A DNA stretch of 64,000 bases from an uncultured Vicinamibacteraceae bacterium (GCA_964636705.1 CAZWUJ010000007.1:22264-86263); one strand, 5' to 3'; shown: positions 36,627 to 40,850, counted from the first letter of the stretch. The notes: a model not told the origin generated them from the letters alone. Numbers and translations: made by a program.

Positions 36627-37940
36627 TCAACGGCTTGCCGGCAACCCCCCCGGCTCGACCGGCAGTTCCGCCGCGACATCGAACCTGAGGCGTTGGTGCG
36701 CCGTTCGGATCGCCTTCATCACTGCCTCCCGGTCATCCTTCCGCGCGAAGATGAAGCCGGGATAGCTTGACCCCTCCGGCCAGGGAACGAGCCGCTCCCC
36801 GGGCTTGACGGTAATCACGACGTCGTCCACACCGGGGACCGCCCGCGCCGCGTCGAGGCCGGTGACGCCGCAACAGATGCCAGCGCCCGGCACCGGGATC
36901 ATCATCACCGCGGAACACTCGCGCGTCACGTTCCAGTCGTCGACGGGCTCCCCGAGCGCATGCCGCACCAGCACTTCCTCCAGCGACGCCGCCTTCCCAT
37001 CGTCGCCCCGGCCGGGCGGCGGATCGAACCGGAGCACACGGGCGCAGCGACCCCCAATGGGGCGCGGCGCCACCTCGAGGACCACTACCCGGCCGCCATC
37101 GATCCGCGCCTCGGCATGGATGGGGCCGTTGGCGAGGCCAAGCGCCCGGACCGCGCGTTCCACCTGCACGATCACGTCGTGCCGACACGCCGGCGGCAAC
37201 GTATCGGGGGTGACGTAGATGGTTTCCTCGAAGAACGGACCGTCGAGCGGATCCGGTTTGTCGAAGATGGCGAAGACCCTCAAGGCGCCACCCGTGACGA
37301 CACCTTCGAGCGCCACTTCGCGACCCGGGACAAACGCCTCGATGAGCATTGTGTCGTTCGCCGGATCGCGCCGGGCCCGAACCTCCGGAGCTTCCAGCAG
37401 GCGGCGCAGCCGCGCCGCCGCGGCCACGAGCTGCCCCGGGGTGTCGGCACGCATCACGCCGCGGCTGGCGGCAAGCGCCATGGGCTTGATGACGCACGGG
37501 AATCGCGCGCCGTCGAGCAACGCCGCCTGATCCGCCCCGACCGGCAGCGCCCGGAATTCCGGGACCGCCAAACCCGCCTCGCGCAGGCGCACGCGCGTGC
37601 GGAGCTTGTGGCTCGCGTCGCGCACCGCACCAGCCGGATGACCGCGCAGGCCAAGCGCTTCCGCCGCCAGGGCGCCGACTATCGCCGGCCTGTCCCCCAC
37701 GGCCACGACACCGCTGATCGGCGCAGTCGTGGCCGTGGCAACGACGGCGTCGACCGCTCCCTTCTCGTCATGGAAACGGATCGGCACCGCGCCATCGCGC
37801 CACGGGTCGTCGAGCTGCAGGCACCGGTCCGTTGCGAAGACCAGGTCGACGCCCAGACGATCAGCCGCCGCGCTGAACGATCGGAGTTGGTAGCCGGTGG
37901 TCGCGGAGACCACCAGCAGTCGGGGGCGGGTGGCCGTCAT
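36627..37940 (-). CDS. ATP-grasp domain protein (L-amino-acid-ligase-like)
   Basis: The pre-ATP-grasp, ATP-grasp and C-terminal layout is present: HKLRTRVRLREAGLAVPEF, FPCVIKPMALAASRGV, IEAFVPGREVALEG, LEVAPRPIGG. Confidence 0.85.
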   Translation of the reverse strand: MTATRPRLLVVSATTGYQLRSFSAAADRLGVDLVFATDRCLQLDDPWRDGAVPIRFHDEKGAVDAVVATATTAPISGVVAVGDRPAIVGALAAEALGLRGHPAGAVRDASHKLRTRVRLREAGLAVPEFRALPVGADQAALLDGARFPCVIKPMALAASRGVMRADTPGQLVAAAARLRRLLEAPEVRARRDPANDTMLIEAFVPGREVALEGVVTGGALRVFAIFDKPDPLDGPFFEETIYVTPDTLPPACRHDVIVQVERAVRALGLANGPIHAEARIDGGRVVVLEVAPRPIGGRCARVLRFDPPPGRGDDGKAASLEEVLVRHALGEPVDDWNVTRECSAVMMIPVPGAGICCGVTGLDAARAVPGVDDVVITVKPGERLVPWPEGSSYPGFIFARKDDREAVMKAIRTAHQRLRFDVAAELPVEPGGLPASR

Positions 37941-37947
37941 CGGAGGT

Positions 37948-39378
37948 TCAGACCAGAGCGACCTGCTCGGTGTCGGGTTCTGCTCAGCAGTACCACGGTT
38001 CGTTCAGATAGGGGGTCTCCGTCCGCTGCCGAACACGTGCGGGCCGCCGGCGTGGCGCGTCGCACCCCGCATCCGCCCGGGCGCGGATTTCGTCGTAGAC
38101 AGCTCGCCTGTCCGCCGTCAGGTCTCGGCCCACGATGGCCGCGACGTCATCCGCCAGCCGGTCCACTGCCGGGTCGGCATGACGCCAGGGATAGACGAGC
38201 TTGCGCCTGTCGAACAATCCGATCCGCCGCTGCACGTCGTCCAGTTCGAGCAGGGGGGAACCGGCAGTCACGAGCAGGCGGAGAGTCAACTGAATCGGCG
38301 CCACCTGATCCACCAGATCGAGCCGCTCGAGCTCCGCCAGCGAGTCGCGATAGGTCTCCAACGTCGTCCAGGGGGTGAACGCGATGAATGTCGGCGCGAG
38401 GGTCAAGCCGGCATCGCGGCAGAGTTGGACGGCGCGTTCCACGTCCCGCCGCGTGTGCCCTTTCCGGAGTCGCGCGAGCACGGCGTCGTCGAACGACTCC
38501 ACCGCGCTCGTCACGAAGAGGCATCCGGTCTCGCGGAGCCGCGGCAATCGATTCGCGTGCGCGATCAGGTGCTCCACCTTGATGGTGACGTCGTAGGTGA
38601 TGCCCGGACAGCGTTCCACCACCGCGTCGACGACCCGTATCGCGTGACCGACGCCATTGAAGAAATCGGGGTCGCCGAACGTGATGTGCCGCGCGCCACG
38701 CGCGACCTGTGCCTCGACGTCCGCCGCCACGACGTCCGAAGCGACGATCCGGAACCGCCCGCCATAGACCGGAACTACCGGACAGTGCCGGCACAGATGC
38801 CGGCAGCCTCGGCTTGCCTCCGTGTAGCCGGTGACGTGGCGCGAGCCGCCGAGCTGCAGCGTCGCGTAGCGATCCAGAGGCGGCAGGCCGTCCCGGCAGG
38901 GCGTGATGTGGTCAAGGCGTGGCAGGCCGCCGGATGTCCGGGCGCGGGCCCTACCGTCTTCCGACTCCCCGTCACTCGTCCCTTCCCGCGGGGCCGTCTC
39001 GCCGCGAGAATCCGAAGCTCCGTGATCCGCGACGCGCACCAAGTCGGCCTCGAACTCGCCGCCCAGGATGTGGCGGACCCCGAGTGACCGGAGATAGGGC
39101 GCGTTGAGCGGCGCGTACAACCCGTAGGCGCAAAGCTGGGCGTCCGGGTTGATTCGCCGGACGTGGCCAATCACTGGCGCGGCCAGCCGGGTGGCGGTGT
39201 GCATCGGGAGGTGGAACGCCACCAGATGCGCGTCGGACACGTCAGCGGCGTCGAACGATTGGCGCGACAGATCGACACAGGTAACGTCGTGACCGGCACG
39301 GCGCAACCACGCCGCGGGCGAAGCCAGACCGAACGGCTGCCGGCCCAGCTCGTACGTCGCGATCAGCGTGACGCTCAT
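37948..39378 (-). CDS. B12-binding-domain radical SAM protein with a C-terminal C-U-A-E-P tail; in-frame TGA (37986-37984) proposed as selenocysteine
   Basis: ATG at 39378 overlaps the symporter stop (ATGA). CRHLCRHC (CX3CX2C). The track ORF ends ...EPWYC-TGA. The next codons, GCA GAA CCC, give A-E-P, and the frame stays open to TGA at 37950-37948. Confidence 0.7.
37951..37974 (-). promoter_or_regulatory. SECIS-like hairpin downstream of the in-frame UGA
   Basis: The RNA reads GAC-A-CC-GAGC-[AGGUC]-GCUC-U-GG-UC. The apical loop contains GGUC, and its GGU falls 24-26 nt from the U of UGA. Confidence 0.5.
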
Positions 39379-40850
39379 GACGCAACCGGCTCGGCCGACA
39401 GCTCCATTTCTGCCTTCGACGGCGGCGGGGTCAGCAGACTGACCACGATCAGCGTCGTGATCGAAAGCGCCAGGGCCGGATAGGCCGTTTGCCAACCCAG
39501 GAGATAGGCGGGGACGCCGTCGACGGCTCGCGCGAGGCCAATCACCTCCCACACGAGTGTCGTCGTCATTCCCACCAGAATCGACGCGACTCCTCCGGCC
39601 CGCGTGGCCCGCTTCCAGATGAGCGCGCCGAGCAGCGCCGGCGTGATCCCGGCGCCGTACATCGTGTACGCCCACAGCGCCATCGCCAGGATGGTCGGAA
39701 AGAAGTTGCCGGCTATGTAGCCGAGCGCACCCACCACAACGACGATCAGCCGCGTGTAGATCACCACCTGCCGGTCGGTGACGGCCGGATTGATGAAGCG
39801 CTGGTAGACGTCGCGGATCAGATTGGTCGATGGCGTCAGCAGAAAGCTGTTCGCCGTGGAAACGACGATGGCGGCGGCGCCGCATACGAGCAGCAGGCCG
39901 AGGGTGGGCGGCAGCACGTCGGTAGCGACGCGAATGACGATGGCCTCCGACGCGGCGGCGTCGAGCCCGGCAATGCGGAGCGACCCGAAGATACCGGTGG
40001 AGTCGATCAGCGTCTCGACGATGATGGTGCCGGCAATCCAGCCGACTACGGCCAGGCGCGCCGCCCGTTCGTCGCGCGCCGAAAAGAACTTCTGGTACAT
40101 GTTCGCTTCGCCGAGCAGCAGGAACATGGTGGGGAGGAACAGGGCGAACGCCGCCTGCGGTCCGATGTCCCCGAACAGCGAAACCTGGTGCGGCTCGAGC
40201 TGCGCAATCGACGCCCCCAGCCCACCCGCATCGCTCACCAGGTAGGCCACGCCGAGGGTGACCGCGATCGTCATGATCAGACCGTTGCCGACATCGATGT
40301 AGGCGATCGACAGCATGCCCGCGAGCGACGTGAAGACAATGCAGAAGATGGCGGTCGCCAGTGCCCCGGTCCCGGGATCGATCCCCGCCACGAGCTCCAG
40401 CAACCGCCCGCCGCCGCGAAACTGATAGGCGGCGATCGTGCCGTAGGCAAGCACCGTGGTGATGGTGCCGAGCACGCGCGCGGCCGGGCCATAGCGCAGC
40501 TCCAGGATGTCGGGAACGGTGTATTGCGCGATGCGCCGGACCCTCGGTGCAATGAAGTAGACGAGGGCGATGCCGACCCAGGCGCCGGCCGACTGCCACA
40601 GGGCCGCGAAACCGGATCGATACCCGAGGCCGGCGCCCCCGAAGAGACTGCCCGATCCGATCCACGTAGCGAGCAGCGTAAAGACCAGGACGCGCGCCGG
40701 CAGGCGCCGCCCCGCCACCAGGAAATCGTCCCCGGTTCGGACGCGGCGACTGCGCCACACCCCGATCAGCACCAGGAGCGACAGATAGAGAACGACTGCG
40801 GTCAGCACGCGATCATTCTGCATCATCTGGCCGATAATGACCGCCGGCAA
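39375..40850 (-). CDS. Sodium:solute symporter (SSS) family transporter
   Basis: About 13 TM helices. FLVAGRRLP, ATWIGSGSLFGGAG and GMLSIAYIDV are typical of the SSS family. An alternative start MMQNDR lies at 40826. Confidence 0.88.
   Translation of the reverse strand: MPAVIIGQMMQNDRVLTAVVLYLSLLVLIGVWRSRRVRTGDDFLVAGRRLPARVLVFTLLATWIGSGSLFGGAGLGYRSGFAALWQSAGAWVGIALVYFIAPRVRRIAQYTVPDILELRYGPAARVLGTITTVLAYGTIAAYQFRGGGRLLELVAGIDPGTGALATAIFCIVFTSLAGMLSIAYIDVGNGLIMTIAVTLGVAYLVSDAGGLGASIAQLEPHQVSLFGDIGPQAAFALFLPTMFLLLGEANMYQKFFSARDERAARLAVVGWIAGTIIVETLIDSTGIFGSLRIAGLDAAASEAIVIRVATDVLPPTLGLLLVCGAAAIVVSTANSFLLTPSTNLIRDVYQRFINPAVTDRQVVIYTRLIVVVVGALGYIAGNFFPTILAMALWAYTMYGAGITPALLGALIWKRATRAGGVASILVGMTTTLVWEVIGLARAVDGVPAYLLGWQTAYPALALSITTLIVVSLLTPPPSKAEMELSAEPVAS

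Follow-up and report, generated by a model that had tools for sequence, protein, structure and literature searches.

A selenocysteine-tailed radical SAM enzyme and its L-amino-acid ligase neighbour as a possible biosynthetic pair in Acidobacteriota

Among characterised enzymes, the closest relative of the protein considered here is ArsL of the arsinothricin cluster arsQML, an enzyme of the radical S-adenosylmethionine (SAM) type, which cleaves SAM to 5'-methylthioadenosine (MTA) and a 3-amino-3-carboxypropyl (ACP) species and forms the C-As bond of hydroxyarsinothricin; three cysteines of its C-terminal tail bind As(III), and without this tail product formation is lost and SAM cleavage is kept (10.1101/2024.02.01.577332; 10.64898/2026.04.29.721666). 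The second point of comparison is the L-amino-acid ligases (LALs), several of which couple a non-proteinogenic, toxic amino acid with one that serves as its carrier. BL00235 produces Met-Gly and Met-Met, and BacD (bacilysin) and TabS (from a tabtoxin producer) are tied to dipeptide antibiotics (PMC6920838). Amino acids with a heteroatom are also used by LALs, as RhiM of the rhizocticin pathway ligates a phosphonic amino acid (PMC13579937). Here we report on three genes in a 64,000-nucleotide stretch of DNA from an uncultured Vicinamibacteraceae bacterium (GCA_964636705.1, CAZWUJ010000007.1:22264-86263; hereafter the window, with positions counted from its first nucleotide), which encode, head-to-tail on the minus strand, an SSS-family symporter, a radical SAM enzyme (rSAM) with an apparent selenocysteine (Sec) in its tail, and an ATP-grasp ligase. 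The rSAM belongs to the CUAEP-tail family NF040546, called uncharacterised in the Haft 2022 preprint (10.1101/2022.07.06.499078), which is the only place in the literature searched where the term 'CUAEP' was found. The family is already catalogued; its function and its partnership with a ligase are undescribed in the literature searched.

By their arrangement, the three genes seem to form a single operon. The stop codon of the symporter gene (39375-40826, minus strand) and the start codon of the rSAM gene (37948-39378, minus strand; 475 residues, Sec465 among them, and a stop codon) overlap in an ATGA (39375-39378, minus strand) that was read directly in the sequence, and the rSAM stop codon reached by readthrough of an in-frame UGA is separated by a 7-nt spacer, ACCUCCG (37941-37947, minus strand), from the ATG at 37940 of the ligase gene (36627-37940, minus strand; 437 aa). 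No Shine-Dalgarno-like sequence was recognised in this spacer. An earlier reading of the same DNA, hereafter the original prediction, had pointed to both contacts and to a single operon; both were found again on inspection (the spacer reading ACCTCCG in the DNA), and the overlap and the short gap uphold the appearance of an operon. It had also noted that there is no room for a precursor-peptide open reading frame (ORF), which holds for junctions of -4 nt and 7 nt, and had preferred small-molecule chemistry to the maturation of a ribosomally synthesized and post-translationally modified peptide (RiPP). This preference appears well placed, as the Pfam matches of rSAM include no SPASM or twitch family, the auxiliary-cluster domains of RiPP maturases, the gene junctions leave no place for a precursor gene, the predicted fold is a Rossmann-like domain with a radical SAM barrel, and the ligase is of the LAL type, which uses free amino acids. 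The statement that no characterised pathway was known for these genes overlooked ArsL, which offers a concrete mechanistic lead.

When scored on profiles with Cys substituted for Sec, rSAM reached 607.4 bits against NF040546, the model of CUAEP/CCAEP-tail radical SAM (seleno)proteins (cutoff 500; model positions 1-467/468), and the ArsL model NF040542 was second best. The Pfam Radical_SAM match scored 48 bits, and the CX3CX2C motif (C192, C196 and C199; 38782-38805, minus strand), the putative site of the [4Fe-4S]/SAM cluster, is invariant in the alignments. The likeness to ArsL extends over the full length: residues 1-408 of rSAM align with RCCLKC-tail proteins of the ArsL family at 29-33% identity (best, a Bacillus protein at 33%, E 2e-71), and the two enzymes have the same architecture, in which a Rossmann-like N-terminal domain precedes a CX3CX2C barrel and a short tail at the C terminus bears vicinal Cys-Cys (here Cys-Sec); each also has a neighbouring transporter gene. 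The two families differ mainly at the tail, which is R-C-C-L-K-C in ArsL and C-U-A-E-P in rSAM; the first tail cysteine is invariant in both families and is the only tail cysteine they have in common. In addition, Cys286 is invariant among the aligned CUAEP members and absent from three aligned ArsL-family proteins. The AlphaFold2 model of rSAM, with a predicted local distance difference test (pLDDT) score of 83, has the Rossmann-like N-domain and the radical SAM barrel, and its closest solved folds are AprD4, OxsB, TsrM and MgmA. Between these two domains lies an insert rich in Gly, Asp, Glu and Arg (38920-39018, approximately residues 121-153), which is predicted to be disordered (pLDDT <50) and is variable in length among homologues. 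The CUAEP family is Acidobacteriota-centred and seems much larger than that of ArsL, as it occurs in at least 598 GTDB species, whereas the figure given for ArsL in 2024 was 147 NCBIfam sequences. To our knowledge, ArsL is so far the only radical SAM enzyme with a CX3CX2C motif that has been shown to generate an ACP species. A precedent for an ACP radical formed from SAM on a [4Fe-4S] cluster is also provided by Dph2 of diphthamide synthesis, which differs from rSAM in its unrelated fold, in the lack of a CX3CX2C motif and in its target, a histidine of a protein.

Comparison with homologues supports the reading of the in-frame UGA (37984-37986, minus strand) as the codon for Sec465 of the C-U-A-E-P tail. 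In the window the tail reads NEPWYC-TGA-GCA GAA CCC, and the frame past this TGA (37986-37984) runs for 11 codons to a second TGA (37950-37948), giving the end WYC-U-AEPDTEQVALV. Of 78 homologous codons behind EPW(Y/F)C (77 genome loci and the window), 66 are TGA and the other 12 are TGC or TGT, with AEP in frame behind every copy, Cys forms included; the C-(U/C)-A-E-P tail as a whole was present in 78 of 81 sequences (80 loci and the window). At 16-35 nt past the U of the UGA lies a hairpin resembling a selenocysteine insertion sequence (SECIS), ACC-GAGC [AGGUC] GCUC-U-GGU (37952-37971, minus strand). Among homologues the 6-bp hairpin, at 17-33 nt past this U, shows covariation, with 96.6% of cells paired versus 84% after shuffling and 37-54% in slid registers, and with 23 cells altered on both sides of the stem. 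A perfect 6-bp stem was found in 55 of the 66 Sec forms versus none of the 12 Cys forms, the mean folding energies being -10.9 and -5.5 kcal/mol, respectively, and in a further set of loci the corresponding hairpin is offset by one register. In the window itself five of the six positions pair, with one C-U mismatch or bulge, and the segment behind the UGA folded alone is not significant (z = +1.2), so that the support for a SECIS element is comparative. In several loci it is the extended stop codon, not the UGA, that the start of the ligase gene overlaps or adjoins, which lends independent support to readthrough. The original prediction had already assumed readthrough, and the codon counts, the conserved AEP and the covarying hairpin now agree with it. 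The only tRNAs that ARAGORN and Rfam detected in the 64-kb window were tRNA-Pro and tRNA-Arg, with no tRNA-Sec, and the Rfam scan of the whole window returned these two tRNAs and no riboswitch or leader. Adjacent Cys-Sec pairs as in rSAM are also found in other CU selenoproteins (HgcA, MerT forms and the SAO-system), whose CU motifs have been linked to heavy-atom binding (proposed in the Haft 2022 preprint, 10.1101/2022.07.06.499078); unlike rSAM, these proteins belong to unrelated families, none of them radical SAM. A cultured organism, Thermomicrobium roseum DSM 5159, seems to have a member of the Sec form with a truncated annotation: on its megaplasmid NC_011961.1 (locus L084, 10372-10460) GCG GAG CCG, encoding AEP, lies in frame and is followed by a GGACCC-GUCG-GGUCC hairpin. 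The neighbours there encode a pyridoxal phosphate-dependent aminotransferase and a major facilitator superfamily (MFS) transporter, and there is no ligase.

By sequence and by its predicted structure, the ATP-grasp protein is an L-amino-acid ligase of the BL00235 type. Its Pfam matches to ATPgrasp_N (39.4 bits), ATP-grasp_4 (95.6 bits) and LAL_C2 (56.1 bits) are all above the gathering scores, and a profile of its family aligns with BL00235 (3VOT) over residues 22-413 on 24-415 (E 1.2e-63), followed by BacD. In agreement with this, the AlphaFold2 model (pLDDT 86) retrieved 3VOT first in Foldseek (TM-scores 0.77/0.82), with BacD and RizA among the next matches. The three-domain LAL fold is common to the window ligase and to BL00235, BacD, TabS, RizA and RhiM/RhiC; BL00235 is the best match in both sequence and structure, at approximately 27% identity. 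A GDRP motif is invariant in the family of the window ligase, and in the profile alignment its Arg takes the place of Pro85 of BL00235, a residue implicated in substrate selection (PMC6920838). This exchange hints at a charged substrate. The Met-Gly and Met-Met activity of BL00235 implies that the S-methyl form of an ACP amino acid, ACP-S-CH3, is accepted by an enzyme of this type.

The association of rSAM with the ligase is widely conserved. One genome per GTDB species was scanned for relatives of rSAM, and 80 loci, almost all from metagenome-assembled genomes (MAGs) of Acidobacteriota, were examined, 67 of which had enough sequence downstream to be evaluated for the ligase. A co-directional ligase gene was located no more than 2.5 kb downstream of rSAM in 58 of these 67 loci, often with a gap of only -4 to 30 nt from the extended rSAM stop codon. 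At L052 the order is swapped, the ligase preceding rSAM, and the two genes are still adjacent. In three loci a DUF169 (PF02596) gene lies between the two (L024 4543-5262, L034 9508-10224 and L041 9504-10256). The pair is kept through a change of flanking genes, which are not the same in Vicinamibacteria-type and Terriglobia-type loci. The neighbourhood check proposed in the original prediction, namely whether the ATP-grasp and SSS partners co-occur with rSAM homologues, came out positive for the pair of rSAM and ATP-grasp. Its view of the trio as the unit needs to be revised: the conserved core consists of rSAM and the LAL, with a YggX-like Fe(2+)-trafficking protein as a frequent third member, and the symporter was identified in 13 of the 80 loci only. 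The YggX-like gene adjoins the ligase in 56 of the 80 loci, mostly in convergent orientation and co-directionally in one clade, and at L089 it overlaps the ligase stop codon.

The symporter is an accessory of one clade, as the 13 loci with an SSS gene are all of the Vicinamibacterales type. A search that started from SSS retrieved the same trio again, and the 4-nt overlap with rSAM recurs in the metagenome loci L095 and L096. The SSS homologues are 478-483 aa long and 77-93% identical. In the window the open frame extends as far as TTG 40850; ATG 40826 (483 aa) is the more likely start, in keeping with the 483 aa of homologues with 91-93% identity. The Pfam SSF score (128.7 bits) is above the gathering score, and among solved structures the choline transporter CHT1 comes closest (E 5e-19); the protein falls under the cutoffs of all specific NCBIfam equivalogs, including PutP, PanF and ActP, and therefore no substrate can be assigned. 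In 20 of the 80 loci, all without SSS, a POT-family di/tripeptide:H+ symporter gene (TIGR00924, 409 bits) lies directly upstream of rSAM, usually in divergent and sometimes in co-directional orientation. The presence of a POT transporter in the position of SSS fits a dipeptide-like cargo. The remaining clades have no adjacent transporter.

A comparable pairing was observed in clusters of the ArsL family. On plasmids, ArsL-family genes sit in ars islands, and the ars context was always present in the loci examined. For instance Pseudomonas amygdali has arsQ-arsL-(two hypothetical genes)-arsM-aquaporin-arsN1 beside arsRBCH, and Alicyclobacillus acidocaldarius (pAACI01) has genes for a CMD-family protein, an ATP-grasp, an MFS transporter, ArsM, ArsL, a CobW-like protein and ArsN1. 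The same CMD/ATP-grasp pair is found a few kb from ArsL in Bacillus cereus (pAH820_272) and on Priestia plasmids, and in the Firmicute arsinothricin-type clusters L093 (2118-7272), L085 (2139-8275) and L094 (3178-8275) a conserved CMD-family gene adjoins an ATP-grasp gene with LAL-type domain matches. In Alicyclobacillus and B. cereus the ATP-grasp has matches to ATP-grasp_4, LAL_C2 and, weakly, ATPgrasp_N. Unlike in the window, the Firmicute ATP-grasp is not directly coupled to the ArsL-type enzyme and lies in ars islands with ArsM, ArsN1, CobW-like and CMD genes. In these Firmicute clusters the arsenic amino acid may be converted into a ligated (dipeptide) form; neither a published role for these CMD and ATP-grasp genes nor a paper linking arsinothricin with an ATP-grasp was found in the literature searched. 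That both sister radical SAM families are paired with an LAL-type ligase argues more strongly than any other independent observation for a ligase that works on the amino-acid product of rSAM.

We tentatively favour, at somewhat less than an even chance, a two-enzyme biosynthetic module with a transporter, in which an ACP group is transferred to an element held by the tail and the resulting amino acid is ligated into a dipeptide. In this scheme rSAM, like ArsL, would cleave SAM at the C-gamma-S bond, and the ACP group would pass to an element X held by the Cys-Sec tail, possibly with Cys286, the core cysteine specific to the CUAEP family, as a third ligand. The product, ACP-X, would be a methionine-like or glutamate-like non-proteinogenic amino acid, which the LAL would condense with a second amino acid at the expense of ATP. 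The transporter, SSS here and POT in sister clades, would move the product or a precursor. In keeping with what is known of its family, the YggX-like neighbour would probably serve in protecting or supplying the Fe-S cluster. By homology X could be As(III) or Sb(III), with Se or S on the tail as an alternative. We infer, in this scheme, ACP rather than 5'-deoxyadenosyl chemistry, a role of the tail in carrying the substrate, the sequence of the two steps and the transport direction. It is more doubtful, and at present a conjecture, that CUAEP enzymes at large are noncanonical radical SAM selenoproteins that forge C-Se, C-S, C-As or C-Sb bonds by ACP transfer and, together with the ligase, yield an organo-element dipeptide not known before.

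The family to which this proposal applies, found in at least 598 GTDB species and in thousands of metagenome proteins, bears Sec and has no characterised member. Its link to a conserved LAL and to peptide or amino-acid transporters leads to a testable hypothesis, namely formation of an ACP-X amino acid and then of a dipeptide. If the hypothesis is true, noncanonical SAM chemistry would be wider than known, the rare Cys-Sec motif would gain a functional role and a common, so far undescribed metabolite of soil Acidobacteria would come to light; an organo-element dipeptide would represent a new class of natural products or cellular metabolites in one of the most abundant soil phyla. The hypothesis also predicts a ligated (dipeptide) form from the arsinothricin-type clusters of Firmicutes.

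Several observations weigh against the proposal. ACP chemistry is not readable from the sequence, rSAM scores under the ArsL cutoff (270.5 versus 450 bits), and its tail offers two soft ligands versus three in ArsL. The ATP-grasps of the Firmicute ArsL clusters are only 21-26% identical to the window ligase and are therefore analogues, not orthologues. Nine of the 67 evaluable loci have no ligase downstream; their neighbours include integrase, HD, MoxR-like, GH39 and nitroreductase genes, and no alternative partner enzyme was found among them. Synteny is stable across many Acidobacteria, unlike that of a typical antibiotic cluster, and SSS and POT transporters are usually importers. With regard to the latter, and to the uptake of a substrate that the original prediction had suggested, ArsQ, of a permease family annotated as gluconate permeases, proved to be an exporter (PMC8552651). 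The locus lacks a methyltransferase partner, and a tblastn search with 15 ArsL-cluster proteins (ArsR, ArsC, Acr3, ArsB, ArsH, ArsN, ArsD, ArsI, ArsQ, ArsM and others) found no ars genes in 93 family-related loci and the 64-kb window, apart from one weak ArsM-like match. As this search was nearly empty, arsenic is not clearly the element. The exception is a methyltransferase with 30-32% identity (L052, 11303-11881), approximately 4.5 kb from rSAM in the locus where the ligase precedes it.

Of the other explanations, the one that survives best, and which we nevertheless consider unlikely, is canonical chemistry: a 5'-deoxyadenosyl radical would modify an amino acid or the dipeptide made by the ligase, and the Cys-Sec tail would serve as a redox or hydrogen-donor shuttle, comparable to GCUG at the C terminus of mammalian thioredoxin reductase or to the pair of cysteines at that of ribonucleotide reductase. 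The CX3CX2C motif is itself canonical, the nearest folds (AprD4, OxsB, TsrM and MgmA) are canonical or class-B-like, and the family has no metalloid gene context. Sec is moreover typical of redox sites (PMC13188914), but ArsL, the nearest full-length characterised homologue, performs ACP chemistry despite the same canonical motif, and its equivalent tail binds the substrate (10.1101/2024.02.01.577332).

A still less probable explanation is a genuine arsenic pathway, in which hydroxyarsinothricin is ligated into an arsenic-containing 'Trojan-horse' dipeptide. It would account for the homology of rSAM to ArsL and for the LAL-type ATP-grasps in Firmicute ArsL clusters with ArsM and ArsN, and vicinal cysteine pairs are classic ligands of As(III). 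However, an ArsM, ArsR and ArsN context accompanies ArsL and not the CUAEP family: no ars regulator, efflux gene, arsM or arsN was found near the 93 family-related loci or in the window, with the exception of the weak ArsM-like match at L052, and the differing tail and the score of 270 against a cutoff of 450 bits also separate rSAM from ArsL.

It is very improbable that the adjacency is mere inherited synteny of three genes working in unrelated processes. Flanking genes such as those for LigD 3'-phosphoesterase (LigD-PE), CofD/YvcK-like protein, aconitase and molybdopterin oxidoreductase are indeed conserved purely by lineage, and SSS is confined to 13 of 80 loci, yet the rSAM/ligase pair outlasts changes of the flanks, often with gaps of -4 to 30 nt, keeps its adjacency through the order swap at L052 and has a counterpart in the sister family ArsL, which is independently found near LAL-type ligases. 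The least probable option, that the WYC-U-AEP tail is itself the substrate of the rSAM domain and is then ligated or processed by the ATP-grasp in the manner of peptide-ligating ATP-grasps or of carrier-protein ligases such as LysX, could draw on the strong conservation of the tail, the retention of AEP in Cys forms and the lack of a separate precursor ORF, but rSAM has no SPASM/twitch Pfam match, neither a protease nor a leader-binding gene came to notice in the neighbourhoods examined, and the ATP-grasp is a full-length match to free-amino-acid ligases, not of the graspetide or RimK/LysX type.

When all ORFs of the 80 loci were clustered for other conserved partners, the groups beyond the ligase and YggX were discarded as lineage synteny, namely LigD-PE, CofD/YvcK-like, molybdopterin oxidoreductase, OmpA, BamA/TamB-like, aconitase, Lgt, glucose-6-phosphate dehydrogenase and glucokinase. 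Apparent conservation across phyla was likewise discounted, as the loci from 'Verrucomicrobiia', 'Limnocylindrales' and 'Bifidobacteriaceae' MAGs have Acidobacteria-type flanks and may be mis-binned. In seven loci (L018, L020, L025, L057, L062, L074 and L079, at approximately 5200-7950) the gene upstream of rSAM is a divergent ORF of approximately 890 aa, a putative aconitase to judge from its N-terminal sequence; if so, and with YggX downstream, rSAM would stand among Fe-S-related genes. Two Vicinamibacteria-type contigs, retrieved by the search that started from SSS, carry a transposase in place of rSAM or of both enzymes (L097 7019-7714; L098 6620-7903), while SSS and YggX remain. Replacement by insertion sequence elements indicates that the module is dispensable.

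The boundaries of the three genes named in the original prediction were both recovered by profile matches, a divergent LigD-PE gene (40865-41650, plus strand; TIGR02777, 199 bits) and a convergent gene with a TIGR03067 domain (36186-36608, plus strand; 49.6 bits versus a cutoff of 40.15), and neither is more than a boundary. The TIGR03067-domain gene had no tblastn match in the 80 loci. In 30 Vicinamibacteria-type loci LigD-PE and a CofD/YvcK-like gene are both present upstream, and the adjacency of LigD-PE is lineage synteny outside the module. With the SSS start at ATG 40826, approximately 38 nt (40827-40864) separate the divergent start codons of SSS and LigD-PE, so that promoters must overlap coding sequence; a scan of 36000-41700, which is uninformative in DNA of 68% GC, detected no sigma-70-like or promoter-like sites, and two terminator-like sites versus 2.8 expected.

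In the window the YggX-like gene (22605-22886, plus strand; PF04362, 117 bits) is 82% identical to the copy of locus L001 and lies approximately 13.7 kb from the ligase. The intervening block (22890-36610) contains genes for a CobN-like chelatase (24058-28119), with two small genes just downstream of it, and for a TonB-dependent receptor (29646-32234), as well as PepSY_TM, DUF1800 and DUF1501 genes and the TIGR03067 protein, and it looks like an inserted metal-uptake block.

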